Below are positions 10,347 through 28,881 of a stretch of DNA of 64,000 bases, one piece after another (the stretch's first letter is position 1; the number at the start of each line of letters is the position of its first letter). The notes under the pieces are model-generated. The model worked only from the letters and a program-made list of their open reading frames with translations. It was not told where the DNA came from and ran no database searches. The translations under genes were made by a program, and so were the position numbers. The DNA is taken from assembly GCA_903813345.2 (NCBI GenBank), contig CAIIXF020000001.1, positions 16,926,001 through 16,990,000 of the forward strand. The letters run 5' to 3'. Source of the DNA: Owenia fusiformis (taxonomy: Eukaryota).

Positions 10347-11873
10347 CCTTTATCAACTGTAATAAAATTGAATTGAAGCACCACAAAACAATTAGATAAA
10401 ACCGATAATACGTCATATTGATTCCCCAAAAATTCATCCCAAATTCAATTCAGTTTTATTACAGTTGATAAAGGATCCAGATAGGATTCGAAATGTTCTG
10501 TGATTTCAAATAATAAAGGTTGTGAACAGGCCATTTTGTGAATACAACCAGTGAAAATCGCCTGTTGCCTGCTGCTAATGAAAACCCTGCTAATGGTGAA
10601 AGCCTTCATAATTCCCCGTTCTGTGGCATGTAACAAGTAAGTTTGCAAAATAATGCAGACTATATCTTGGGGTTATAGGTATTTTCTAATGATCAGGTGT
10701 ATTTTTAAGGCTAATTCATTATCTCCAGGAAAAGTACATGTACAAAGATGTTAAAGTCAATTGGGGTTTCTAGATAATGAAGGATCTATCAACACATCAT
10801 CACCCAACTTAGTTCAAGTTTCAACATAGTAGCAAACTGTTTTTTTTTATTTTTAATGTTTAATGGAGTTTCCATTAAACATTAAAAATAAAAAAATCTC
10901 GAGTTAAATGAGTTTTGAAATATGATTCATGGAAAAATTTAATCAATTCGAATGAATTGAAAACTAACATTCTCCATGCTGTTTTCTTAATAGGATTAGT
11001 CAGGCTGTAATTGTTTTCACCAAAAACCTTTTTTAAATCTTTTAAATCCCTATCAGAGACATATTCTTTTTTTAAAAATCAAGTGTTATTGTGTATTAAC
11101 CTAATGGTTTCACTTATTATATTATTATTAAGTAGTGGAGATGATATAAATTTAGAACAATCTTTGCAATTCAGTTTTTGTAATTCAAGCTAAATGCTAA
11201 ATATATTAAGGCATAAAGCATTATGCTTAAATAGAGCAAGAGATGACCTGATATTTAATGCCACTTTGCACATAATTTCACCAATTGTGTGTAAATAGTC
11301 CAAATATAAATGTGATTTTTGAAGCGAGACCACAAAACATATTTTTAAACTGTTGATTCTATACATCTTTTTGATGAACTTGAACATAAACCCATACAAC
11401 CAAACTGCAACTATAATTTTTTATGATAATAAAGTTATGTTCTCACAAAATTTTGATGGCCAAACTTATTGACTCCTCCATAGATGTCTTATGGAATATT
11501 TCCAATTTTGAATGAAACAGAACATATATTTCAGGTAGCTATGGCAACTCTATCGGAAAGTCCAATACTTGATTAGAAAATGGGACTCGTGATATGATTT
11601 TAATCCACTCATGGATATTGATATCTGTACTCTCTTGCTACGCTCGCTCGTGCAGATATCATATCAACTCGTGGATAAAAATCATATCACTCATAAATCA
11701 TAGGATATCCTCTATTTGTACCAAAAAATACCAATCAGAGATTAACAACCCTCTATTATCATATTTTCTTTCAGAGTTGATCGGCGTTGTGCATGATGAA
11801 ATATTGAACAAGTCATAAACCCCCCCACAATATACTCACACTGGGATACTACACGAATATCTTACTGTAAATC

Positions 11874-12210
11874 ATGGACTCTGTAACTGATATTAAAGAT
11901 ACAATGACTGAAAACAGTGACCCAGCAGGTGTAAATAAGGCTGTTGATGGTGAGGAAAAGAAGCCACCACTTGAAGAAAAGACAAATGGGAACGAGACTG
12001 AAGAGGAACCTAAGGGTGTATCAGACTCTGGAGGCACATCTACAGAATTAGAAAAGCCTGACAAAAACGAGTCATCTAATGATCCTTCAACATCTGATGC
12101 ATCAGGTGGCATTAACAAACAGAGCAAAGACAGCTGCAGCTCAAGCCCAGACAACATTGAAAAATCTGAAGAGAATAAGGAAAAAATAACAGATGAAGTG
12201 AAACCTGATG
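11874..12210 (+). CDS. L3MBTL3: l(3)mbt first coding exon (acidic, low-complexity N-terminus); exon starts at about 11775
   Basis: Acceptor ttttctttcag ends at 11774, ATG at 11874 (atcATGg), donor G|gtaagt after 12210. Confidence 0.8.
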
Positions 12211-15200
12211 GTAAGTACCCTTTGTTGTCTCCATTTACATGTAAAGGAAAGTTCATGATATTGTCAATCTATAAATTAACCAAGAAATGCATCAATAGGT
12301 TTTATTCGCTAAATGTTTTACTTTTGATTTTAAGTTTACATGGATATCATGATGCAAGATTATTTCTATTTCAACTATCACACTTTTTAAAGTGCTATAT
12401 TTTCATCTTCTTGTCTTGATGGATGTGTATTCATGCATCTGTCTGGATGTGCCACAATGGCATCAATTGTGTCCTCAAAATTTGGGAAAACTGCTTATTA
12501 TTATTCAAAGGTCTAAAAACCTGCCACTAGGTAGTTACCAGTAGGCAGTTACCAGTTTCAGTCCTTTCTACGCCTGTTTTTCAATGTTTGATGCATCAAT
12601 ATGACTTCATTGTTGTGTTTGGACACATAGTTATCCTCTCGGAGAAATGCAAATGCTTTGGAATTAAAGTGGAAAACAATATTTCCCATGTTATTTTCCA
12701 AGAGGGAAAACTCATGAGATCCATTGTTGTCAGCTAAATTTCGGTCACCCATAATTGATATCTTTAAAACCCCTGATCGAAGGAATGCATTTTTCCTGTA
12801 AAGAGGATAACTGTGCCTCAAAACGCAACACATTGAAAATATGAGGACTATGTGTACTTTTCCTGTTAATGCATTAGCCTAACATAAGCACCTGTTTTAA
12901 TCCTCAGAAAACAGTCACATTATGACTGTTTAAAATATGTTCAAGTTGTGGTACTTCCGGTGCTCCTTTATGTGCGGAGTACTATAATAATATGAACTAT
13001 TATATTGGAGTCTTACAGGTTCATCTATTATAGGTGAGAAAGAAACAGCAAAGGCAAAAACAGATGAAGCTACAAATGTTGAGGGAAGTAACACAGAAAA
13101 GGAAACTGAATCAACAGGGGAAAGCATTGCACTGGATCTGAAAGGTATGTATACATGTGCAGGCCAGTAGCCAGGATTTGCCAGTTTTCAAAAATTACCA
13201 GGGGGAGGTTCACATCTGACAATTTTGGCCCAAATATGGCTAAAATCACTTGAGAAATGCTCAAAATGGTGAAAAACTGCATGATTTTGAAAAAAATTTT
13301 GTCCAGGGAGGGGGGGGGGCTACAGGCATGATGTGCATGTAATACTGATCAGATGAAAACTAAGCTACTACATTTACTTAGTAAATGGATAAACACAAGG
13401 AGCACACGCGTTTCGAACTCGCAACCTCGTGGTTACAGCATCTATAAGCCTAGCGTTAACCTGCTGGTGCTCAAGCCCTCTCTGCCAACTCAACAACCCA
13501 AAAAAGTTTGTTGCGTTAGTCGTGGAATAAAAAACACAGTTACAATTACACACAGTAATATAGTTGAGCAAAGCTCATTTGTTTAATGGTATATGACACA
13601 TCATTGATTAACCATGGTATCTCTTTCCTTCTTATATTAAGTCAGATAATGTGATCAGCATCAGAATGCTATATCATACTATTGTAGGTAGGTTACCCTG
13701 AGGGTTAGAGCTATTACATTGACTACTAGGCTCTAAATATAGGAGAAATAAATATTTAGTTTCGATACTGATAAACCTCAATGACCTCAAAAGTAGCTGC
13801 TGATTTGAAACTAGCAGTGATTCAAAAATGAGTTATGAAACATGAAGAGACAAACTCTTTGATTCATTTTCTCAAGATCCAATTGAATTGTAATATCATG
13901 ATAAGGGATCAATGCAATGTTTGATATTGGATAATTAACTTTATTCGGATAGTTAGGGGTGTCTTTTTGAGCGACAAATGTATATACTGTACCTGTAGTT
14001 AATTTTGGCGGAGATAGATTTTTAAATCCCTGACAATTTTGGTCACCTTTTTCGTCCAGTACTTTTTAAAATAAAAAAAATATTCTGAAAGTATTTGGGT
14101 AAATATTAAGGATATTTTAAATCTCATCTGATTTTCAATTTTTCTCTTTACATTATTAATCTGTATATGATATGTGTGTTTCAAAAATCTAGGTCATTGT
14201 CATGTTTCCAAGGTCAAATAAAAAAAAAAAAAATTATCTGTTTCAGTTGATAAATAAAAAATGATGATATTCCAGGTGTGGAAGTTACTAATGATGGAGC
14301 TCCAACTATCCCAACTGAGGCCCAAACTGCTGCTACCATTAGGGCCCCAACTGATGCTGTCAGTGAAGGCCCACCAACTCTCGAACCAATGGGTCAAGAT
14401 GATGTAAAGACGGGGGATATGAAACAACAAATTGAAGATAATCATAATATCCTAATGGCAGAAATAAAGGGTATTCAGTCATATTCATTACATGATGAAA
14501 AGAACAATTGCACAATAACTAATCTTCAATGCTGGTTTTAAAAGTCACTCTAAAGTGGCTGTGGTGATGTCGCGGTCACAAGGAAAAAACTCATATCTGA
14601 TTGGTTAAAATTCTGTTACCTGTATTTCATTTATATAGTGAAAAGAAATAACTTGAAAGTGATATGGTATAATAATTACTTGCCATGACGATATGAGGAA
14701 GGAAATATGAACCTACATAATTTATAACTCAATTTTAAGTCATTTGTAATGATTTTTCAGATGAAAGTAATACATCAGATACTACCATAAGATCAGATGA
14801 CACTGTGAAAGCTGAACCCATTGAGGAGCATACATCAGAGGAAAAGGGTATTGACCTGTCAAAAGAAGATTTTGATGCCACCCAGGCCCTAGAATGGAAC
14901 AATGGGATAGGAACCTTGCCTGGAAGTGACCTCAAGGTATAAAATTAATATATATACAGTATTGATAAAGAACAACCGGAAAGAGCATTTAAAAGGTGGA
15001 TGTCTTCAAAAGATAAGTTGACAAATACAGTAGAAAATGAACTTGGTAAAGGTTATATGTAATTGGATGTATGTCATTTTGTACATACTGAAACTTATGT
15101 TACCACCACAAATGGTGACCTACTGTTATAATATCCATTTTTTTATGGATGGTGTTCGGCATCCAGCATTTGTAACAAATGGCAGGTTGTGACATTTTGC

Positions 15201-18200
15201 ATGTTAATGATATTACTATGTTATTTTGATATTATAGTGTAGTGTAGCATCGAAAGTCAAGATATACCATGAACCTTTGTCTACATTTTTCTTTAGATAT
15301 CCAGATATGGTGATTACAGTAACATTGTCAGTTTCTTTCATATAAAATACAACCATTATGTATTGCTTTAACTAAGTAATTCTATAGTATACATACATGT
15401 CAATCTCTCATTGACTCTTAACTGATGTTATATTGTAAATAAATTATACATTTATTATGCCTTTGTAAATTTACCTTGTCATAAATCCGGTGTATATGTG
15501 GATTATGGACATTATTGTTCATATATAATAAATCAGCAAATTAGAAATACATGTAAAACCTGATGGAAGATGGAACGCCTCTGTAAGTGGAACACTTTAT
15601 AATCCTAAGACCAACTGACTTAATGTTAAATGAACCTCTATAAGTGGAACGCATTCCAAGTGGAACACTTTTTAGAGGAACCAAAGGTGTTCCACTTAGA
15701 CAGGTTTTACTGTATCTCGTTTATTTTATTGCAGTTTCGCATGAATGAATTTGGAGTGATGGAAATGATCACGGATGACCTATTTGGAGATTTAGATGAC
15801 CTTTCAAAGGATGACACTTCAGATAAAGTAGAAGGTATATTCTCTGTAGTACAACATGAAATATTGATTGACTCATAAATTAGCAAGGGGAACTAAGCTA
15901 AGAGTACCATGCCAAGTGGTTCAAGTGTTAAATGTGATATTTGAATATGTGTAAAATTGAAGTTTCAAAAAAGTGAAAAAATGTAAGTCAATTTCATACA
16001 CTACATTGAGAGGTTCTAGTTAATTAACCTTGTTGCACTTTGGTTTTAGAAAAGAGCCAAGGCAGTGCACAACTACCAGTTTCAAATGACAATGGTACGG
16101 TGACTGTCAAACAAGAATCAGGTCAGTTTTCTTTGAGACCATCTCTTGTATAAGATATCTCAGAACCAAGGTGGTCAAAAAACTGCGAACAAACTAGTTA
16201 AAATTGAATTATAGTCATTGTATAAGTTGTCATATTATTTTCCTACACAATGCTGAAAAAATGGGCCTGGCCCAGATCAAACCTAAGTGACTCATGTCCT
16301 CTAGGCCAGTGCCCTAAAAACTAAATGGAGCGTTGCACTTAAATTGAATATTTCATGATGTAAATCAAGATTATTTCTACTTGCATCTAGACTATTTGTT
16401 AGATTGATTGTCAGGTATCAGATATGCCAATCAACATAACTTTGGGTGATCCTTCCAATGATATATCACACTTGGTACCATGCATTTTGGTTTTAGCTGG
16501 AGAGGGAGGGGGCACTTATTTAAAACCCTCTGATCAACTTGTACTGAGTTTAGTATCAAACATGAATGTAAATTTATTTAGTTACCTGTGATAAGATATC
16601 GAACATATGAAGCTACACCTAATGAACTGTAACAGGCCTGATGGAGCGCTAAAGCACACATTAGTTTTTGATAAACACACACAAACGTTATAATACTTTT
16701 GATTCTTTTAATTGTCTCTATAATTTTACTGCTTATTCATTGATTACTTAATTGGCAAAATTCTTCTCTAGGGTCCAAGGTGGCTACATTGAAAGAGTTA
16801 GAACACATACAGAGTGATGATATCTGTCGATGCGAAAACTGTGGCATGTATGGAGTCGCAAGTGAGTTTTGCAGATCAGGCAGATTCTGTAGCCAATCAT
16901 GTGTTGGAGTTCATGCTAACAAGTAAGTAAAAGGTTTTATACCTTGTGCCTTAAATGTAGTTCTAGGGCTCAGTTGTTTTGGACTTTATAGAAGGGAAAT
17001 GTTTAAAAAATCTCCAGAAATCTTTATTTATGACAAATACAGGTACGAGTAAATGGTGCTAAAATGATATTAAAAATGTTGCACGTGTCTTCATAGGTAT
17101 TAATAGTTGATATATTTGTATCAAAAAAGATCTCCATTCACTTACGTTTGACTGTCTTTAGTGATGTCATAAATGAATGCAATATTGATGATTCCTTGCT
17201 TCAATAAGACAATGAAGCTAATGTAAGATATTGTAATATTTTTTTTATGTCACAATCAAGAAGTTGATCATGCATTCAGCATCTGTAACAAAGGGTTACT
17301 TTTTATGGTGTCACCATCAACAAGTGGTAATATATCTCCAATGGTGGTAGTTGGTGTTCGGCATTTGGTGTCTATAAGAACTGGGATCTGTAACAAATGA
17401 CAGGTGGTGACATTTTGTATGTCAATGCCTTGCTGCAACCAGATGCTAACATTTTGTCATTTTGAGTTAATGTCATGTTTAGAAATCCAATTTTGACCCT
17501 CCTCCTTTAACTTGATTATACCTTTATCTAACATTTAGTAATATAACTAATGGTTTTGTTAATGTCAGGATGAGTGTGCAAGCGAAGGTTGAGGCCAAAG
17601 TGAAGCACACTACGGCTGTTAAACCAGAGAGAGTTCCTGGACAAGTTGGGAGACCACCTAAAAAGAAACGCAAGCCCACAAGTGAAGGAGAAGTCAGAGA
17701 TAGCAAGATGGCCAGATTTAGTGATGATGCGGTGTATGAAAAGAAACCAGGTGAGAGACACCACTGCAGTTGATTAGGAAAATCAAATAACATACAAAAA
17801 TCTATATTAGTAAAACCTGTGTGTATTTTTGTCAGTGTTTGTTTAGTGTAGGTAGGTGTTCAGAAGTCAGTATACATGTTGTATGCGCATGTGGAGGAAG
17901 GGTGTCTACTAGGGACAGGTGTTCAATAGCAGGAGATGTTCACTAAGACAGTAACGGTAATTTGTAAAATGAATAGAGGAAAATCTTTAGAGTTGAAAAG
18001 ATGTCACTTTATTATAAATAGAAATGAAATATTTCAGGTAAAAAAGACAAGAAGTGGACTTGGGAGAAGTATTTAGAGCAGAGCAATGCTGTTGCAGCTC
18101 CTCATAAGTTATATGCACAGGTACTAGAATAGTATGTCTTGCTGCAGTTGACTTTTCTTATGTTAATTTCTGCTTGTTTCAAGATGAGGGTAGTTGGAAA

Positions 18201-21200
18201 GATTTTTCTGCGTTGGTTGGAATTTGGGGGATTTTGCCTTTGCTTAGATTTATGTATTGAAGCAAAAATGTATGCTACACCAATATATGTGTAACAACTA
18301 TTTGATATAAATTCCAGGGCATTCCTACAAATAAAAATGGTTTCAAAGTTGGAATGAAACTAGAAGCAATAGATCCGAAACACCCATCACTTTATTGTGT
18401 TGTCACAGTGGCAGAAATTATGGGATATAGAGTGCGTCTCCATTTTGATGGCTACAGCGAGTGCTATGACTTCTGGGTATGTGCCTCTTCTGAGGAAATA
18501 TTTCCCGTTGGTTGGGCAGAAGAAAACGGCAAAACTTTACAACCTCCAAAAGGTAAGTTATTTTGAAATGATTTTGATTGGTGTGTTTTATGTGTGAGTT
18601 ATTTGTAGGTAAATTCTGAATCTAGCATTGTGAAATGTATATAACATTTAATTACGTTAAAGGCAGAATCAGTTTCACATGACAAAATTGCCCCACCCCC
18701 CTTACCAAAAGCTGGCTACGGCATCTTTGGGGATTTTTTCAGAAAACAGACATGACAAGGAATAATATAAGCAAAAAGTATTCTAAAATTGAAACAATTC
18801 TGTTAAGCTCGCTCGCTAGATCTGATTCTCTCTTTAATTTATATTTATATTAATTAATTAAATGAATTATGACAACTGTTTCCCATGTCTACCTCATGAA
18901 TGTACTGTTCTTTACTTTATGACACCAAAAGGCTGTGGTAAGTTTGCAATATTTGGCGTAATATGCTTAATTTGGTGAAATGGAATGCAAAGATAATGCA
19001 TGACAATAATGTGCACAATTATGTTTAATTTTTAATATTAATGTGTTTCTGATGGAGCTCCTTGGGATTACTTTCCCCTCTCTATTGTTGGTTAATACTA
19101 TAGTTTGGTCTAAACAGTGGCCATTATGCCCAATAAGGGCCATGTAGAATGGTGGATAGATCCCTGGGGGACATCCAATGATGGTGTACATTCTCTCCCT
19201 TCCTTGATTACTGTATTGCAGGATATCATGAAAATGTTGATGTCCTATTTATATAAATAACTAAGGCTCATACTGTAAGGGAAAATAGGTTAATTGTAAG
19301 TTTAACTGCCCAATTTTTGGTGAACTTGTTTTTACTCTAAAATAAGTATAAGATAAATTGAATTGATGTCAAAACCTTAAATCCTAAATTAGGCAAAAAA
19401 GGTTTGTCCATGTTCAGATGAAGACATAGAAAACAATAATCTTGAAGTCCTTGGCTAAACTTACAATTAATCCTTAAGGGTCCAAAGCTTTATAACTTGC
19501 ATTTAGTATGGCAGTGGCTTCTGTTGGTGAATAGATATGACATATGTGCATGTAAGGTACATGTACATACATATAGATATACATATATTCTGTAGGCATG
19601 TTTTTTAATTACTGTACAAATTTTGCTTACACATAGTAGTATTAAAATGCTTCATGTTTTGGAGGATAAACTGATGCGATTTCAACGCAATATTTTTCAA
19701 GCGAGGTCCAAATGAGGTCTGACCTTATTACATGAGATAACTTTACAATGAATTTATTTTCAGTAAAAGTACTGAAGTCTGAAATACTTATACTTTGTTA
19801 TCATTTCTTAGTTGTTAAAAATATTGTAGGAAGACCATAACTGACATAAATGGTGGTCCAGTTTTCAGTTTTATAAATACAAGGCTTGCATTTAAAAAGG
19901 TGTTACATATTTTACATCCCTTGAAGATGTTTGGAAAATATGACTAAGAATTCAACTTTGCTTCTTGGCTTCATTTTGAATATACAAAGAACAAAAGGAC
20001 ATAATAAGTCAAGGTCATGCGACATAGTACATAGTACATAGTACACTGCATAATAGCTATTAAGAATTGAGTTTAGGCTTGCACTTGATTTATAAAATAA
20101 TGAGATTTATTTTTTCCGTTCGAGTGTATTTAATTATTATCTCCAAGTATAATGAATATATTCAACTGTTATTCAATGTCGGGATTTGTCTTGTGATTTA
20201 TAATAGAATTATATGTTTCAGGGTATACTGTAGAGACATTTGAATGGTCAAATTATATCAAACTGTCTAGGGGTGTTACAGCACCAAATAACCTCTTCAG
20301 CGTAACATACTCTACACCAGTGAGTACATTTTCATAATGTTGAAATATACATTCAACTTTGAAATGAGTGAGCCTCTTTATATTGTGTGTAAAACATGTT
20401 GCTCATTGGTAATATTGCTGAAAATTGTGCTTCTTCCAAAAAGTGGTGATATATCAGTATACATGGACGTAACCACAAATTTTAATTGAATTCATTTTGT
20501 GGTGTCATTTATGTGGTGGGATCAAAGGTCCATTTAAACTGCTTATCTGTTCAACTTGAAATTTCGACTGATGCAAGAGAAGACTATTTCCAAAATCTGA
20601 TTAGGTTTTGGGCATGCTGTATAAATTACATGGCAGCCATTTTCCTCCTTAAAGTGCAATATTTATTACAATGTGTCTTATTTTGACCAGGATGCAGCAT
20701 CACCATTCATCACATGTAACAAATGATTACATTTCCAAAATACTCTTACAGCCTGCTACACCACATGGGTTCAGAGCTGGGATGAAACTGGAGGCTGTTG
20801 ACAAGAAGAATACAATCTTAACATGTGTTGCTACTGTGGCTGATGTGAGAGGGGAACATATTCTCATTCATTTTGATGGCTGGGAGGACAATTATGACTA
20901 CTGGTGTGACCCAACCTCCCCATATATACATCCAGTAGGGTGGTGTCAGGAAAATGGAAAAGCATTGTCACCTCCAAATGGTAAGTTATAACCAGTAGGG
21001 GTGGTGTCAGGAAAATGGAAAAGCATTGTCACCTCCAAATGGTAAGTTATAACCAGTAGGGGCGGTTTTAGGAAAATGGGAAAGCCTTGTCACCTCCAAA
21101 TGGTAAGTTATAAATCTAGTGGGGTGGTGTTAGGAAAATGGAAAAGCATTGTCACCTCCAAATGGTAAGTTATAACCAGTAGGGGTGGTTTTAGGAAAAT

Positions 21201-24200
21201 GGGAAAGCCTTGTCACCTCCAAATGGTAAGTTATAAATCTAGTGGGGTGGTGTTAGGAAAATGGAAAAGCATTGTCACCTCCAAATGGTAAGTTATAACC
21301 AGTAGGGGTGGTTTTAGGAAAATGGGAAAGCCTTGTCACCTCCAAATGGTAAGTTATACATTCAGGGGGATGGTGTCATTTTAATGTAAACCTAAAAACA
21401 CCAACTTTATTCTTAATTCATTATTATTAGTTCTCTTGGTAGATACCCATTTTTCAAAAAGGGTTCCATTTGCACAATCTTCTTATTGGTTGATTAGGTG
21501 AGTATTTCATTCATATACAGGCCCATTGTTAGCTTTAATTTCATCAAGGAGGTCCTCTAATTCTTCAAGAGTCTAATGTTTCAGTTAAGAGTGAGATTTT
21601 GCCAATTTACCCTCAAAGTTCACAAGAAGTATGTTTTTCCAAATTTTACTTCACTTAAACATAACTACTGTACACTGTATTTTACGTTGTAGACTGGCCA
21701 GATATTGAAGGTTTCACTTGGGAGGAATACATGGAGCAGACCAGGTCTGCACCCGTCTCTCTACGGGCATTTAAACCTGTGAGTTGATACCAGTCTCTGT
21801 ATTAAAAAAAACTTGGACAGTATACTTTACTTGTGCTATCTATTTTCAGTCCCATTTACAAGTCAATATTGCATTGATAGTTGATACAATCAACATCTCA
21901 CTTAAACTTACTTTGTCATTTATCTACAAAAGCCTTCATGTGAAAGTATAGATTTTTTAGATACAGTACAATACAGACTTTTGTAAAAATGAAAATCATT
22001 GATGCTGAATTGAAACAACAATTATTTTTCAATGACTACCCAAAACTATTTCAACTGTGTATATCATGTACACATATTTGCTGTGAACCTTTATGTTCAA
22101 GTAAATGAATAAATTGAACTCGCTTTTGCTTCAGAGGCCACCCGTAGAATGGGAGGTTGATATGAGATTAGAGGCAGTAGACAAACGCAATCCTATCCTT
22201 ATACGTGCTGGTAGAGTTGCAGAGAAAGATGGCCACCAAATCAAGATCCATTTTGACGGCTGGCTACCAGATTACGATTTCTGGGTCGATGACGATTCTG
22301 TTGATGTTTTCCCATGTGGGTGGTGTAGTAAGACTGGCCATCAACTCCAACCACCATTCTGTGAGTACAATAGAGTCCACTTACGAATTATCTTGCTTTA
22401 TCCAGTTAAGAATACAGTGAAACCTGTCTAAGTGGAACACCTTTGGTACTTCTAATAAGTGTTCCACTTGGGAGGTGTTAAACCTAAAGAAGTTCATTTA
22501 ACATTAAGTCAGTTGGTCTTGGGATTCTAAAGTGTTCCACTAACAGAGGTGCTCCACTTCTTGATGTGTTCCACTCATAAAAGATTTCACTGTATTGTTT
22601 AATTGCAGTAGAAATTCATTAAGTATTCATTTGAAACAGGTTTTAATCAGGGAATTCATTAAGTTTAGACTTCTTAATCAATTGTCATGACCATTAATAT
22701 CATGTCTTGTGTGTATTTCTTTCACTAGATGCTAGTGAGGTGCCACGTGCAGCCGTAGCAGGCCAATGTCCAACACTCGGCTGTAACGGAGTGGGACATG
22801 TCAAGGGTGCAAAATACACAGGTCACCATAGGTATGCTGCTTACTTAAGACATTTCAGTTTAAAAACACAAAATGAGGAGAAACATATATTGTTCAAAAT
22901 TGGAAGGATTTCAAATGTTATTCCTGTGTAATAAGAATGAATATCCGTTATTAATGTGCCTCTCACCTTTTCCTTATACAATGCCCTACATGAAGTTACA
23001 ATTGTTATGTCATCACCACAGTGGTGACATCTTGTTATAGTTTCTGACTTTTTTTGTGGTGGCAGTTGGTGTTTGGCATGTGGGGTATGTAACAAATGGT
23101 AGGTGGTGACATTTTGCATGTTGATGTCTTAATGTCTCATACTCAGTAAGGTCAGTGTTCATCATGAGATATTTAGAGTTTAGACCTTAGTCAAAGTATA
23201 GACCACATGCTATGTAACATGTTACGATAATCTGTTACCCAGATCAGAACTAACTGGACCGATGCTCATGTCACACCCTGTTAAGACCCATCTAGAAGTG
23301 AGAGAGAGTTAGAGATACCCAGTGCAAAATTTCTCACAGTCTCAAACAGATTCTTTAATAACAGTATGTTTTTTTTTCTACCTAGTACCTTTGGTTGTCC
23401 ATACTCCGCGTTGAACATGAACAAAGAAAATATTCTGGCAGACCGTTTGGGACCTACGAGAACTGATTCATATGAAGGAAGGCCAATAAAAAGTGAAGCA
23501 AACTCCCCAACTGACCAGAAATATGCGTAAGTATAACAATTGTGTACGTACTATGTTCTTTGAAATGAAATGAAGATCTTTTAACTGGATAAAGACTTGA
23601 TGGCCACATCAGTTTTCTGGATTTTCAATGTTACATAAAATACTCTTAGCAAGATCTTGATTTTGTCTAGCCTTTGATTTAAAACTAAATTAGCCTCTAT
23701 ATCCATTTTGAATTATGTTGTCAGAAAATGAAATTTGATAACATTCATTACACATTCAATTAAACATAAGAGGCCATGAAAGATCCATAAAGATCTTAGC
23801 AGTATCAAAACTGTAAAATTATCTGTAATAGTCAGAGGGTAGTGTATTAAGACAAATGTTAAAATTTGCATCAAGCACTTCACATTCAAATTTGCATCAA
23901 GCACTTCACATTTGCATCAAGCACACCACATTCAAATTTGCATCAAGCACTTCACATTCAAATTTGCATCAAGCACACCACATTCAAATTTGAATCAAGC
24001 ACTTCACATTCAAATTTGCATCAAGCACTTCACATTCAAATTTGCATCAAGCACTTCACATTCAAATTTGCATCAAGCACTTCACATTCAAATTTGCATC
24101 AAGCACTTCACATTCAAATTTGCATCAAGCACTTCACATTCTTTGTATTGAAGAGGGAATAAATGCTTCATTTGTGACTATTAAGATCTATGTCACCTGA

Positions 24201-27200
24201 CCTGTTAGCACTATGTACTTTGTATAATTGTGTCATTAAGGAATAAAGTGAATTGAATAACATCTTAAGGTTGTTTTTGTAAAAGCCTGATTTTTGAACA
24301 TGAATCATTAATTGGTTAATTTGGCCAATTGTGGTATTATTATGAGTAACACATTATTGTAAATCCTTCTAACAACATCCTAATTAGGCATAAACTACTC
24401 TTTTGGTCTTAGTCGATTTTTGGAAGTTGACCTAATAAACACCTAATAATAATCCAATAAACTTATAATAAGGCAATATGTGTTATATCGATCACTCTTG
24501 ATTAGCTATATTGGATAGATATGGTTAATTAGGAATGCGTATGTAAGAGAATAGTGTGCTTGTATTTTTACTCTTTAGTATTTTAACTTCCTTCAATGAG
24601 ACAACACCTGGATTTCTACTAAAGAGTGTTTTAGTATTTTTAGTCTTTAGAATTTTTACTTCTTTCTCCAAGGCAAGATAACACCTAAAGTATTTTAGAT
24701 CACAAAAGTAACATTTGCAAGTACCAGATCAGAAGGATGGGTTCTCCCGAACTCAAACGAAGGTTTCTTACATTTGGAGAAAAAATTGAGGTCATCAGAC
24801 TTTCTAAAACCAAGATATCACAGCGTAAGTTAGCATTCACGTATGGTGTATCACTTGGAACTATCAATAGAACTCTGAAGCAGAAGCGAGACATTTTGAA
24901 TGCAAGTGAATCAGAAAATTGGAATCCTGAGCGCCGGAGATTGAAATCGGGAAATGATGACCTTAATGTCGCTGTTCTAAAATGGTTCGTTGCAGCCAGG
25001 AGTAAAAACATTCCGATATCTGGTCCTCTAATCAAAGAAAAAGCACGACTTATTGCCAAAGATATGGGACTGAATGACTTCAAGGGTTCAAATGGATGGC
25101 TGAGTAGTTTCCAGACCAGAAATAACATTCTGTTCAAGGCCATAAGAAAGGGTAGTGCCAAAGTGAATACGTATGATGTGAACAAGTGGAATGCTACTCT
25201 ACCCAAACTGTGTGAGAATAATGCCGCAGAGGATATTCTCACCAAGGAGGAGACTGGAGTTTTACACAGTCATTCTCCAGTACAGAGTAATAACCCATGC
25301 AATGGGATTGAAAGCAGCAAGGGTTACTTGCCCGTTCTGGCTGGATCTGACATGACCAATTTTGCGGGTTATACATGTATCCAGTAAGACAACAGAGTTT
25401 GAGTCTCTTTATTTCTTGTGTGTCCAAATAAGTAAAGGAAAACAGCCACCTCTGAACTATGAATATAATGTGGTTAAAACCCATTACAGATTATGTACAT
25501 CTCATTTTCCTTACTCAAACTGGCCCGTTTTGCGATTATATCTGACAACATATACGAGTACATTGTATATTTTATTTTGTTAAGATAAATCAGCTACATG
25601 CATATAGACATACCCTTCTAAAACTGCCAACTTATAGTTAGTCCTTGAATGAAACTAGCTAAAAAAGCAATTGTACTTAATTAGTAATGTATTTTCACCC
25701 TTCGACAACTAAGAAACAAAACCTAGTGAGTGAAATTGCATATGTAATACTTAAAATAATTATGATTGTGTTTGCAGAAAATGTCCAACATCAGGGTGCA
25801 ATGGTGAGGGTCATGTGACGGGTCGATTTACAGCACACCATAAACTATCAGGGTGCCCGATAGCACCACAGAACAAGGAAAAGTTGTTGATGTATCAGTA
25901 TATGAATGGAGATGCCAGATCTAGTCCTGAGGATCTTAAACCAATTGAACCAGTAAAAATACCGAAAAAACGAGGGAGGAAAAAGTAAGTAGATTATCTG
26001 GGATAAACATGCAAGTTTGTTCTGTAAATGAAATCCATCAGTCCTTATAGCGCACAATTCAATCTGCGTTTTCACTAATCAAGTATCCTCTTTATTCAAC
26101 CATGTTTTTATAGGCCTAAAGGAAATACATGAGCCTGGACTAATACCAATTGTATATGGAAGGCACCATATGTTCATTGTATAGTCTACTGAAATATAGT
26201 CTCATTGTATAGTCTACTGAAATTTTGTCTCATTGTATAGTCCACTAAAATATAGTCTCATTGTAGTCTACTGAAATATAGTCTCATTGTATAGTCTACT
26301 GAAATTCAAAACACGAGTGTAACTACAAAGTTAAACTTAATATAAAGAATTTCATTTGGTGGAGTGCGAGGGATAAAACTGATATGTTTATTTTAACTTA
26401 GTGACATAAGACAAAGCTACTGTGTGTAGGGGATGTAGACTGAGAGGTGAAAAAGATTGATATTTCAGTTTGGGGTCTGATGTTTTGATGTGATTAGGTA
26501 GTTATCTTGTTGCACTATGTACCAGTCTAAGGCAGTATTTTGTGTACATTTAGCAAAAATTGAAAGGATAATACGCTATTTTACTTGGAAATAAAACAAT
26601 CACATGCTCCCCTGATTTTAGGAAGAAACGTGATCGCGATGAGAATGAGGCATTGTCAACCCTACACCAAGGTATTCACCAGTCAGTCTTTATGTCCACC
26701 TATGTGCCACCAAACCCTGCTAAAGATCTACCACTCAACTGGGATCAACATTCCAAACTTCTTCCGGGCCTCTCTTCTGTAACGGGAGGTTCAGCCATTC
26801 GCTGGAGCGTTGATGATGTCACAAGGTTTGTGATGTCACTTCCTGGCTGTGCAGATGTTAGCCAGCATTTCAAGGAAGAGGTAAGTATACATTGATCCAA
26901 TTAAATACAGGGTGTACAAGAAAACAATATTTATATCATATCAAACAAACTTTATATAAAATTTTAGATGCATATGCTCTATAGGGTTAGAATTTCTACT
27001 CGCATCTGAATCATTTATCTCATAAATCAGTTCAAATATGCATTACCAAAAAGCTAAATCACTGTGTTTTTCTTGATAACCAGTCAGATATTTAAAGGCT
27101 GAATCAGACATAAAGGGCAGTGACAAAATTACAATCAACATGGATTGGTACAGTTGACCTACTGTACTAAAATATTATTTACAATCTCATGTATTATCTC

Positions 27201-27591
27201 CTTAAAGGTCTTTGATATTTTTTGTCTAATGGTTGAGTTGTTTAAGATTCCAAGTGCACAGTGGCATGGTGTTCCAGAACTCAAGTATAAACTGAAGGAA
27301 TTTTTCGAAAATAGATACGCCAAGAAATAATAATATGCTAAAAAGATTCTTTGGCGGTTGGTGTAAAGACTGCTTTCGGTTGTCAGCATCTGTAACAAAT
27401 GGCTGTAAATGTAAATGCCACATTGTTTATGTGTTATAATTGTATCATATATCATTTTGCAGCAAATTGATGGTGAAGCGTTCCTCTTGTTAAATCAAAC
27501 AGATATGGTGAAGATATTAAATATGAAGCTAGGACCTGCTATAAAAATCTACAACAGTATTCTCATGTTAAAAAGAACTTTGGAAACCTGA
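11874..27591 (+). CDS. L3MBTL3: Lethal(3)malignant brain tumor-like protein (L3MBTL1/3/4 family), 19 coding exons, about 1044 aa
   Basis: Manual GT-AG, phase-consistent splicing: 11874-12210, 13019(or 13034)-13144, 14276-14470, 14761-14936, 15735-15834, 16050-16121, 16772-16922, 17569-17750, 18038-18120, 18318-18552, 20222-20319, 20752-20980, 21693-21778, 22135-22360, 22729-22831, 23386-23526, 25778-25984, 26622-26880, 27463-27591 (3135 nt). Encodes [24 protein letters not shown], an FCS finger, three MBT repeats, two C2HC fingers and a SAM domain. The symbol names the closest vertebrate family member; the gene is likely co-orthologous to L3MBTL1/3/4. Confidence 0.93.
13019..13144 (+). CDS. 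L3MBTL3: l(3)mbt coding exon 2 (in-frame tandem acceptors at 13019 and 13034)
   Basis: tcttacag|GT TCA TCT ATT ATA G|GT GAG AAA ... CTG AAA G|gtatgt; E/K/T-rich open frame. Confidence 0.7.
13159..13330. mobile_element. Small MITE (CAGGCCAGTAGCC...GGCTACAGGCATG)
   Basis: Imperfect short TIRs; ATGTG on both flanks. Confidence 0.5.
14276..14470 (+). CDS. L3MBTL3: l(3)mbt coding exon 3
   Basis: ttccag|GTGTG ... ATA AAG G|gtattc, phase 1-1. Confidence 0.75.
14761..14936 (+). CDS. L3MBTL3: l(3)mbt coding exon 4 (conserved [16 protein letters not shown] motif)
   Basis: tttttcag|AT GAA ... CTC AAG|gtat. Confidence 0.88.
15550..15712 (-). mobile_element. pogo/Tigger-like MITE (inverted copy of 22415-22592)
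   Basis: Ends gtgttccacttagacaggttttactg|ta; internal cctaagaccaactgacttaatgttaaatgaac is the reverse complement of about 22493-22525. Confidence 0.75.
15735..15834 (+). CDS. L3MBTL3: l(3)mbt coding exon 5 ([12 protein letters not shown])
   Basis: ttattgcag|TTT CGC ... GAA G|gtatat. Confidence 0.88.
16050..16121 (+). CDS. L3MBTL3: l(3)mbt coding exon 6
   Basis: ggttttag|AA AAG ... TCA G|gtcagt, 72 nt, phase 1-1. Confidence 0.7.
16772..16922 (+). CDS. L3MBTL3: l(3)mbt coding exon 7, FCS-type zinc finger
   Basis: [24 protein letters not shown]; acceptor ttctctag, donor AA|gtaagt. Confidence 0.9.
17569..17750 (+). CDS. L3MBTL3: l(3)mbt coding exon 8 ([11 protein letters not shown]-hook/NLS-like motif)
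   Basis: aatgtcag|G ATG AGT ... CCA G|gtgaga. Confidence 0.85.
18038..18120 (+). CDS. L3MBTL3: l(3)mbt coding exon 9 (MBT1 N-arm WTWEKYLE)
   Basis: atttcag|GT AAA ... GCA CAG|gtacta. Confidence 0.9.
18318..18552 (+). CDS. L3MBTL3: l(3)mbt coding exon 10 (MBT1 core)
   Basis: [17 protein letters not shown]...[13 protein letters not shown]...IFPVGW. Confidence 0.95.
20222..20319 (+). CDS. L3MBTL3: l(3)mbt coding exon 11 (MBT2 N-arm FEWSNYI)
   Basis: tgtttcag|GG TAT ... ACA CCA|gtgagt. Confidence 0.9.
20752..20980 (+). CDS. L3MBTL3: l(3)mbt coding exon 12 (MBT2 core; D/F/W/Y cage residues present)
   Basis: [11 protein letters not shown]...[26 protein letters not shown]. Confidence 0.95.
20932..21358 (+). 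repeat. 7 copies of a ~61-bp unit made of the MBT2 exon 3' end plus its splice donor
   Basis: Unit ccagtagg(g)gtggtgtcaggaaaatggaaaagcattgtcacctccaaatggtaagttataa; the first copy is coding. Confidence 0.95.
21693..21778 (+). CDS. L3MBTL3: l(3)mbt coding exon 13 (MBT3 N-arm FTWEEYM)
   Basis: cgttgtag|AC TGG ... AAA CCT|gtgagt. Confidence 0.9.
22135..22360 (+). CDS. L3MBTL3: l(3)mbt coding exon 14 (MBT3 core)
   Basis: [11 protein letters not shown]...[13 protein letters not shown]...[13 protein letters not shown]; phase-1 donor T|gtgagt. Confidence 0.95.
22415..22592 (+). mobile_element. pogo/Tigger-like MITE with TA TSD
   Basis: TA|CAGTGAAACCTGTCTAAGTGGAACAC ... GTGTTCCACTCATAAAAGATTTCACTG|TA. 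Confidence 0.8.
22729..22831 (+). CDS. L3MBTL3: l(3)mbt coding exon 15 (C2HC finger 1)
   Basis: [21 protein letters not shown]; phase 1-2. Confidence 0.92.
23005..23135 (+). mobile_element. Mini-HINE family copy; others near 15105-15205, 17300-17430, 27340-27410 (+) and 33925-34080, 34300-34540, 37405-37625, 50560-50645, 59530-59555 (-)
   Basis: 5' hairpin atgtcatcaccacagtggtgacat, 3' tgtaacaaatggtaggtggtgacattttgcatg; same subTIR layout as the 28882 element. Confidence 0.7.
23386..23526 (+). CDS. L3MBTL3: l(3)mbt coding exon 16
   Basis: [15 protein letters not shown]...; phase-2 donor GC|gtaagt. Confidence 0.9.
23862..24140 (+). repeat. 26-bp minisatellite, about 10 copies
   Basis: aaatttgcatcaagcacttcacattc head-to-tail. 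Confidence 0.95.
24699..25387 (+). CDS. Tigger/pogo transposase-derived ORF (Psq-HTH + CENP-B/Tc5 HTH, truncated inactive DDE); candidate alternative exon of l(3)mbt
   Basis: ORF 24737-25387, open from 24689: [14 protein letters not shown]...[44 protein letters not shown]...[27 protein letters not shown]. Acceptor tattttag ends at 24698; donor CA|gtaaga after 25383. Confidence 0.8.
25778..25984 (+). CDS. L3MBTL3: l(3)mbt coding exon 17 (C2HC finger 2 and PKKRGRK)
   Basis: [27 protein letters not shown]; phase 2-2. Confidence 0.92.
26174..26305 (+). repeat. 28-bp minisatellite, about 5 copies
   Basis: tcattgtatagtctactgaaatatagtc. Confidence 0.9.
26622..26880 (+). CDS. L3MBTL3: l(3)mbt coding exon 18 (linker and SAM N-half)
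   Basis: [12 protein letters not shown]...[14 protein letters not shown]...[17 protein letters not shown]...FKEE|gtaagt. Confidence 0.93.
27463..27591 (+). CDS. L3MBTL3: l(3)mbt last coding exon (SAM C-half)
   Basis: [42 protein letters not shown]. Confidence 0.93.
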   Translation, partial: QIDGEAFLLLNQTDMVKILNMKLGPAIKIYNSILMLKRTLET

Positions 27592-28015
27592 CAATTCTAT
27601 ACATTGACAGTAAACAGTGAACCATTATGCAATAGTGTTGTCATGGAAGGAAGCCTTATTCATCATTTCAATGTTATATAGTCTTACGCAGAACTCTACG
27701 AAAACACGGCCTATTAAGAACAGCACGATGAGAAGCAGCTGCTAATTTGTCATACGTTAGTATTTAATTGATTAGACTGAAATTATGTCCATTATCTATT
27801 TATCAGATATGTAGTACAAGAATTATTGAATTGTATTTATCATATAGTACATCTTGTAATTAGCTCATGGAAGATGAATGAGCTATGTCTGCTGCCTCAT
27901 ATACATGTCTTTGTATGTCTGCTATGCAATGCAAGGAGTTATAATAATCGTAGTGATGGAATTTTAGTGCCAAGTATAAGTTAATGTTAAAAATGAAATT
28001 CTTATATATCTAAAT

Positions 28016-28385
28016 CCCAACATACACCAATGGGGCAATATCCCACTTGCCCCATCGAGTCCTATTGAGTCACCCCATGAGACCTTGTTAACTTGATCCA
28101 CTGTCACAGATATGATGTAAAAAAATTTAGCCTAGTTTGGAAGGTTTTACTGAGGCCATGTTGATCCAAAGCCACCTGACATATCAGTCACCTTGTTAAA
28201 TTCTCGATGGAGCCTTGTGAGACTTGCCCCATGGAGCTCAATTGGACATGAGGGAGCTCGATGGGGCTCCATGGGGCAAAGTCCCATGGAATCCATTGGA
28301 GTCCAATGGGGCAAAACCCCATGAGGTCCGACAAGGTCCAAGTCTATGGAGGTCCCACTATATGCCCCATTGGTGTATGGCTGGC
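28016..28385. mobile_element. MITE downstream of the l(3)mbt stop
   Basis: TIRs catacaccaatggggca ... tgccccattggtgtatg; internal CCCCAT/ATGGGG subrepeats; no clear TSD. Confidence 0.7.
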
Positions 28386-28881
28386 TTAAATGGATCTGGA
28401 GTTAATTGTATATTCACAGATGATTATTAAAATTTATGACGTACATCACTCAATTATAATTATGTCCTAACTACATCACTATATTATAATTTCGTTTTGT
28501 GTGAAAAAATAATGTTCTTGTTATTGCAATCATTTATCCAAGCAGTATGTTAGCAAAAGCAGAGAGCCAGTTGAATTGTGGAGTATCATACTAGAATGCC
28601 AATAATCTAAAGAGAATAGAATGCACGTTTTGCTCTACTGGCACGTGTTTTGGGCTGAATTGATCTAAGCAAAGGTGCTTCTCTATAATGTAAATGGAAT
28701 TGTAGTACTAATTTCCCTTTAAATATTTTGGTATTTTATTATATGGTGTCCAGATTTCAATGATGAATAAATTATAAACACTTCTTTTCTATTTCTTTTA
28801 GTTCTGGCCTTTGATTTCATTCTATTGTCTTCTTGTTTTCATCTGAACAGCACGTCACTATTGTATCATACTCCTTTGTTT

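Follow-up and report, generated by a model that had tools for sequence, protein, structure and literature searches.

CENP-B, Jerky/JRK, and the TIGD proteins are encoded by stand-alone genes that have kept most of DDE_1 as a fold, and the KP protein of the P element is a truncated transposase that acts as a repressor. In textbook fusions between host proteins and transposases, the host gene provides the promoter and an N-terminal effector (KRAB or SET), and the transposase forms the 3' part. Here, we analyzed a stretch of 64,000 nucleotides from the annelid Owenia fusiformis (contig CAIIXF020000001.1; referred to as the window, with positions counted from its first base), in which an open reading frame (ORF) derived from a pogo/Tigger transposase lies within an intron of a gene resembling l(3)mbt. 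We propose that this ORF is part of a transposon-derived alternative first exon, which is spliced to a downstream host exon (25383>25778) and would thereby give rise to a 413-residue protein with two helix-turn-helix (HTH) domains, one C2HC finger, and a SAM domain, but without MBT repeats. For this model, the grounds for belief and for doubt are about evenly matched.

Compared to CENP-B, Jerky/JRK, and TIGD, the ORF has the same N-terminal pair of CENP-B_N and HTH_Tnp_Tc5 domains (PDB 1HLV; E value, 9.7e-16), no terminal inverted repeats (TIRs), and a low copy number. In contrast to these proteins, only ~40 residues of its DDE domain are left, and its C terminus is probably supplied by the host. 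Like the P-element KP protein, it represents a transposase DNA-binding N terminus without catalysis, which could occupy the ends of related elements. Unlike for KP, no active partner element was seen in the window, and no TIR match was present near the ORF. With respect to l(3)mbt and L3MBTL themselves, the proposed short isoform would have in common just its 198 C-terminal residues, which comprise one C2HC finger and SAM, and would be devoid of the methyl-lysine reader. As opposed to the textbook fusions, the transposon would here contribute the promoter, the ATG, and the N terminus, and the host would contribute C2HC and SAM; further differences are the annelid host species and l(3)mbt as the partner. 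KRABINER, SETMAR, and POGK are host-transposase fusions generated by alternative splicing and described in bioRxiv 10.1101/2020.05.07.082677; they would have in common with the present locus the in-frame fusion of the DNA-binding domain of a transposase with host domains via preexisting splice sites of an intronic transposon. The text of that paper contained 0 occurrences of MBT, L3MBTL, or "SAM domain." Likewise, a literature search covering listings, abstracts, and word searches in papers yielded no description of a fusion between l(3)mbt or its SAM domain and pogo, although supplementary tables of fusion screens might list such pairs. The event would thus be of a known kind, together with domesticated pogo DNA binders and fusions between host proteins and transposases, and its new aspects would be the partner (C2HC and SAM of l(3)mbt), the orientation, and the phylum.

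The pogo/Tigger-derived reading frame and its splice sites

The ORF extends from stop to stop over positions 24689 to 25387 of the forward strand and comprises 232 codons, in agreement with an earlier note on this DNA, made from the sequence alone, that had reported an intact same-strand ORF of ~230 codons. It is located within the 2.25-kb intron 23526>25778 of the l(3)mbt-like gene. Its first ATG, at 24737, is favorably placed for initiation, as position -3 is an A and position +4 a G; no ATG is present in 24618 to 24736, and an in-frame TAA is found at 24686 to 24688. Both HTH domains of the ORF scored above their Pfam cutoffs, with 31.8 bits (cutoff, 21.2) for CENP-B_N and 58.9 bits (cutoff, 22.2) for HTH_Tnp_Tc5. 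The pair of HTH domains described in the earlier note was thereby recovered, but its designation of the first one as Psq type did not stand: since HTH_psq remained below its own cutoff (E value, 0.087), this domain is, by its profile scores, better named CENP-B_N type. Consistently, the DNA-binding domain of CENP-B (PDB 1HLV) aligned to residues 7 to 129 of the ORF. In an AlphaFold model computed from a 10-row alignment, both HTH domains were predicted with high pLDDT values (Table 1), and the values were between 28 and 62 over ORF residues 135 to 216.

A homologue search in 1.84 billion representative proteins returned 6027 matches at an E value of 0.001 or better, none of them above 49% identity; the typical match was a transposase of ~510 residues aligned over residues 5 to 209. 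In a collection of 5.8 billion proteins, neither a fused nor a stand-alone homologous protein was found among the longer entries, and the proteins of near length included 3 distant matches (32 to 43% identity). When 11 transposases were compared with the window by tblastn, a single locus was hit (24752 to 25357), and transposase residues 210 to 511 had no match in any frame of the window. DDE_1 was not matched by Pfam in the ORF, and the first Asp of the catalytic domain, which is present in 9/9 aligned transposases, is replaced by Glu 45 codons before the stop, exactly as had been read before (EETG in place of DETG, with the frame ending ~45 codons later). Compared to an autonomous pogo/Tigger element, the N-terminal CENP-B_N and HTH_Tnp_Tc5 domains are present, and a complete DDE_1 with its acidic triad is absent. 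Judged by these alignments, the ORF corresponds to the N-terminal ~40% of a transposase of the pogo/Tigger type and is truncated and catalytically dead. Flanking TIRs, whose absence had already been remarked upon, could not be identified convincingly among 14 inverted pairs of at least 12 nt in 23500 to 26000. Only one of these pairs, 12 nt in length (23714/25541), flanks the ORF; as ~0.2 flanking 12-nt pairs are expected by chance (a rough estimate), it was rejected as likely fortuitous, its right arm being followed by TA and its left arm being preceded by AT instead of TA.

At its 3' end, the ORF runs into a phase-2 candidate splice donor (tatcca/GTAAGACA, cut after 25383), which contains the TAA stop of the ORF. 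The acceptor at 25778 is in phase 2 as well, so the match of donor, stop, and phase pointed out in the earlier note was confirmed, and the codon split by 25383>25778 reads CA+A (Gln). Starting from the ATG at 24737 and following 25383>25778, 25984>26622, and 26880>27463, the frame stays open for 413 codons up to the natural stop of the gene. Within the window, only 1.0% of the stop triplets are part of a GTAAG, which, multiplied by 1/3 for the phase match, gives ~0.35% by chance. The candidate donor has no G at -1, a property shared by 5/16 confirmed or annotated donors of the host gene.

Transcripts over the reading frame and the flanking exons

Four of 16 listed sequencing runs (X1, X2, X5, and X13) were mapped as assembled contigs on positions 11500 to 28500, with 15 of 67 joints listed; contigs are without strand, and their depths cannot rank parts of one gene. 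X1 and X2 had 0/15 of the listed joints and contigs crossing exon-intron borders and are, accordingly, DNA-like. X5 and X13 shared 14/15 listed joints, all of them at GT..AG host introns, and are RNA-like.

In X13, a contig of 581 letters with a depth of 117.3 was colinear with 24618 to 25197, with 2 differences. The bin preceding this contig (23974 to 24540) had a depth of 0.64, and depth was 0 at 25570 and 25678. Apart from these two zero values, uncovered parts of the RNA-like runs were given no weight. The upstream host contigs of the same run had depths of 11.2, 11, 21.8, and 25.7, compared to 191.4 for the downstream contig (25778 to 25984, 26622 to 26878, and 27461 onward). In X5, the ORF contig had a depth of 8.9 and started at 24680, and the host gene was covered alike upstream (370 to 835) and downstream (356 to 898). 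The run with the strong ORF signal was, hence, also the one that showed a 7-fold step up in depth at exon 25778. The ORF is transcribed, and its transcript seems to start inside the intron, with a product that would lack the MBT repeats. By eye, nothing convincing in the way of a TATA-like element was seen upstream of 24618.

The downstream contig of X13 starts exactly at 25778 (207 letters before the 25984 joint), and the upstream contig of 917 letters, as calculated from its length, extends beyond 23526 by 30 letters into exon 25778. Such an end bears the signature of a branch in a k=31 assembly graph, with more than one upstream partner for 25778. These are indirect signs of an abundant second partner spliced to 25778; within 11500 to 28500, no expressed candidate for this partner other than the ORF exon is present. 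A further hint comes from four runs of one study, which carry 0.23 to 0.25 of the sampled words, more than the canonical exons could contribute by themselves (~0.16 of the stretch); X13 is the only one of the four that was mapped.

Several points weigh against splicing of the ORF to the host gene. Neither the junction 25383>25778 nor the canonical 23526>25778 appeared in the listed joints (15 of 67). The summed depth of the X13 bin 25675 to 26241 (71.2 x 567, ~40,370) equals 207 x 191.4 plus 30 x 25.7; since the sum is fully explained in this way, there is no placed 30-letter tail of an abundant ORF contig, and a 25383>25778 splice would therefore need its junction in an unplaced 60-letter contig. 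In the bin 25108 to 25674, the remainder of ~16,300 left after subtraction of the ORF contig fits a coverage end at ~25306 to 25445, depending on the depth assumed. Since the contigs are without strand, transcription may also be antisense. Both X1 and X13 have contigs that stop at 25197, and a second, near-identical genomic copy could explain the ~2-fold depth of the ORF in the DNA-like runs (see below) and could be the expressed one. Furthermore, neither the ORF nor the fusion is present in the annotated protein set, and no orthologue from another species was recovered: a metagenome scan with the ORF gave 130 pattern matches, of which 0 were confirmed, and the 1.84 billion representative proteins contained no relative beyond the 49% identity given above. 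As alternatives to the donor after 25383, three sites that could account for the end of X13 coverage were considered (25279, 25286, and 25322) and rejected as weak; 25286 is also in the wrong phase.

The same observations bear on the possibility that the ORF is a stand-alone nested gene, with an unspliced transcript that starts at ~24618, is translated from the ATG at 24737, and ends before 25570. The resulting 216-residue protein with two HTH domains, terminated by the TAA at 25385, would then either have been domesticated as a DNA binder similar to CENP-B and Jerky or serve as a repressor, of transposase origin, that acts on related elements. A gene of this type would account for the colinearity of the ORF contig with the genome, for the lack of a joint from 25383 among those listed, and for the drop of X13 to zero depth at 25570. 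It would likewise agree with the coverage end deduced from the bin 25108 to 25674, in the range of which a variant signal, AATAAG, occurs at 25428, and with the bin 25675 to 26241, which leaves no space for a placed junction tail; the differential conservation of the HTH domains described below fits equally well. However, a stand-alone gene explains neither the 7-fold step at exon 25778 and the contig start exactly at this position, both seen in X13 only, nor the fact that the decayed tail of the ORF stays free of stops precisely until a GTAAG donor of matching phase is reached. In addition, no AATAAA or ATTAAA is present in 25388 to 25777. We therefore regard a stand-alone gene as somewhat unlikely.

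The earlier note had envisaged a fusion in cis, in which 22360>24699-25383>25778, or inclusion of the ORF as a cassette via 23526>24709 or 23526>24733, would unite the FCS finger, three MBT repeats, two HTH domains, C2HC, and SAM in one protein. The phases given for these sites proved correct (24699 is in phase 1, the same as donor 22360, and 24709 and 24733 are in phase 2), an AG follows a short T run at 24697 to 24698, and since rare variants drop out of contigs, a minor isoform of this kind is conceivable. In contrast, the X13 contig was colinear across all three acceptors, with at least 81 letters upstream, started at 24618 after CT instead of AG, and included the in-frame TAA upstream of the ORF. 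X5 was colinear across 24699 as well, but only with 19 letters upstream, which is under the 31-letter rule. ORF depth was not tied to that of the MBT exons, as it amounted to 117 versus 26 in X13 (4 to 10 times the depth of MBT exons in this run) and to ~9 versus 722 in X5, and the annotation contains 23526>25778 only. A fusion in cis is thus highly improbable. What holds of the host-transposase fusion as originally suggested is a transcribed DNA-binding module without a working catalytic domain, whose donor fits the next host exon in phase; its MBT-containing form found no support.

Uneven conservation and copy number

To compare the parts of the ORF, alignment columns were counted as conserved if at least 8 of 9 aligned transposases agreed. 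The two HTH domains kept 20/21 conserved columns (4/5 in the first and 16/16 in the second), whereas only 12/24 were kept in the remaining sequence (3/6 in the stretch following the HTH domains and 9/18 in the DDE remnant; Fisher's test, P = 0.0009). In line with this, the similarity between the ORF and transposases was at least as high as that among transposases for the HTH domains (0.37 versus 0.34 and 0.55 versus 0.48) but much lower for the DDE remnant (0.32 versus 0.57). Because a recently dead element would be evenly preserved, which the ORF is not, this pattern suggests that selection on DNA binding may have continued after catalysis was lost. It also fits a putative domestication of the DNA-binding module. 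The decayed tail of 83 codons is still open up to the donor; in a substitution-only simulation, ~8% of runs were stop-free at ~50% residue change, so the open tail suggests constraint but is not decisive. Polymorphism of the ORF was low, with 6 differences in 1140 letters, compared to 133 in 6942 letters in the other listed pieces of X1 and X2 (Fisher's test, P = 0.0003).

In the DNA-like runs X1 and X2, depth over 24543 to 25197 was 36 to 44, versus 10 to 21 in most of the flanking pieces. In this respect, the ORF does not behave as a high-copy repeat, unlike stretches of miniature inverted-repeat transposable elements (MITEs), over which all four runs reached depths in the thousands. Its ~2-fold depth may reflect collapsed haplotypes (the ORF being little polymorphic), a second copy, or a library of the accessibility type. 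A TTA insertion polymorphism is present behind 24655, within the same stretch.

These data also bear on whether the ORF is simply a dead transposon relic without host function, whose frame stayed open by luck or youth and whose RNA is noise from a leftover promoter or stems from a near-identical copy elsewhere. The catalytic domain is gone, and neither an orthologue nor the annotation speaks for a function. The ~2-fold depth in the DNA-like runs, together with the contig break at 25197 common to X1 and X13, would be explained by another copy, a stop-free tail in ~8% of simulated runs is not negligible, and the low polymorphism could mean a young insertion. A young relic, on the other hand, should be evenly conserved, contrary to the contrast between the HTH domains and the rest of the ORF, and as the nearest of the 1.84 billion representative proteins is less than 50% identical, no recently active family is in view. 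Moreover, the ORF depth in X13 exceeds that of the host's own upstream exons, the TIRs are gone, and DNA-like depth rules out many copies. Altogether, we consider a mere relic unlikely.

The host gene and the proposed short isoform

The l(3)mbt-like gene extends from 11874 to 27591 on the forward strand. As is characteristic of l(3)mbt and L3MBTL, it encodes three MBT repeats (E values, 3e-27 to 5e-33), C2HC fingers (zf-C2HC was found twice by Pfam), a C-terminal SAM domain (matched by SAM_1 as a half-domain; E value, 7e-5), and an FCS finger, the last one below threshold (zf-FCS_1, 20.8 bits versus a cutoff of 26.6). A public 1039-amino-acid protein of O. fusiformis, which carries the name lethal(3)malignant brain tumor-like, shows 100% identity to most of the host exons. 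In this protein, the sequence encoded up to 23526 is followed directly by that of exon 25778, the sole junction annotated there. Of the 15 listed splice joints, 13 are located upstream of 23526, and these were present in both X5 and X13. The host exons flanking the transposase ORF are real.

Table 1. Positions of the proposed transposase-derived exon, its domains and splice sites, and the exons of the l(3)mbt-like gene
Feature	Position	Strand	Evidence
Upstream canonical host exons: FCS finger, three MBT repeats, and first C2HC finger; outside the proposed short isoform	11874..23526	+	Pfam, annotated protein
5' untranslated part of the transcript	24618..24736	+	5' end of X13 contig at 24618, depth 117.3
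AG of the acceptor proposed earlier (exon start 24699); no sign of use	24697..24698	+	X13 contig colinear, 81 letters upstream
Coding part of the pogo/Tigger-derived exon, from ATG to the base before the candidate donor; 215 codons + 2 bases, phase 2	24737..25383	+	Sequence, Pfam
First HTH domain, CENP-B_N type	24755..24901	+	Pfam E 1.1e-7; pLDDT ~90; 4/5 conserved columns
Second HTH domain, HTH_Tnp_Tc5	24953..25135	+	Pfam E 5e-16; pLDDT 80-93; 16/16 conserved columns
Start of the DDE catalytic domain, remnant; first Asp to Glu, 4-residue deletion, 9/18 conserved columns altered; predicted disordered	25232..25357	+	Alignment, AlphaFold
Candidate splice donor GTAAGA, holding the TAA stop (25385-25387); use inferred	25384..25389	+	Sequence
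Host exon with second C2HC zinc finger, phase-2 acceptor; proposed exon 2 of the short isoform	25778..25984	+	zf-C2HC E 2e-14; annotated protein; X13 contig starts at 25778; joint 25984>26622
Host exon with linker and first half of the SAM domain	26622..26880	+	RNA-like joints, annotated protein
Last coding exon with second half of the SAM domain; stop codon from 27589	27463..27591	+	SAM_1 E 7e-5, annotated protein

Repeated sequences were noticed at several sites of the host gene. In the second MBT exon, the last ~49 bases together with the GTAAGT donor occur in ~7 tandem copies (window positions 20932 to 21376; 61-nt unit, 90 to 94% matches). This repeat results in ~7 identical donor sites, the first of which is taken by the RNA-like contigs (20979/20980>21692/21693). 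In X5, 4 extra letters that match neither side are present where the first MBT exon is joined to the following one (18553 to 20221); a micro-exon, another haplotype, or a peculiarity of the alignment could account for them. A 26-nt tandem repeat of ~11 copies (23862 to 24141) lies in the same intron as the ORF, ~500 bp upstream of the 5' end of its transcript, and a 28-nt tandem repeat of ~4.8 copies (26174 to 26305) is found in the intron following the second C2HC exon.

Two stretches of the gene, at 15578 to 15712 and 22415 to 22592, are MITEs with TA-flanked inverted ends beginning CAGTGAAACCTGTCTAAGTGGAACAC. They are of high copy number and of the Tc1/mariner/pogo style. Within the window, their TIR motif occurs only at 15687 and 22415 (0 expected by chance). 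With ends reading TA/CAGTGAAACC..., they can be named as targets of the ORF product only as speculation.

According to the proposed model of an alternative first exon, a transposon of the pogo/Tigger type would have inserted into the intron between the host exons 23386-23526 and 25778-25984. It would subsequently have lost its TIRs and ~60% of its transposase, and the first catalytic Asp would have changed to Glu, leaving the 5' region, the ATG, two CENP-B-type HTH domains, and ~80 codons of decayed open frame. Transcription would start in the intron at or just before 24618, where the RNA-like contig ends, and translation presumably at 24737, and the GTAAGA donor after 25383 would be joined to the phase-2 acceptor at 25778. 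In the predicted product of 413 residues, the two sequence-specific HTH domains would be followed by a linker predicted to be disordered and then by one C2HC finger and the l(3)mbt SAM domain. By analogy with other DNA binders derived from transposases, and speculatively, this product could recognize DNA sites of the pogo type and either associate with full-length L(3)mbt or compete with it; association mediated by SAM domains is known among MBT and Polycomb proteins. As a decidedly unlikely extension of the model, it might serve as a stage- or tissue-specific targeting subunit that binds pogo-type ends, such as those of the high-copy TA/CAGTG MITEs, and recruits or displaces full-length L(3)mbt via SAM. 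If true, this would mean that a methyl-lysine reader is aimed in trans at a specific DNA sequence by a transposon-derived protein.

Host genes that have captured the DNA-binding domain of a transposase are well documented from vertebrates, but there is little documentation of such cases from spiralians. If the proposed first exon is real, a transposon would have donated a promoter, a start codon, and a DNA-binding head, and a chromatin-regulator gene would have donated a zinc finger and an oligomerization domain. The result would be an unannotated isoform of a conserved gene of the tumor suppressor type in an annelid that serves as a developmental model.

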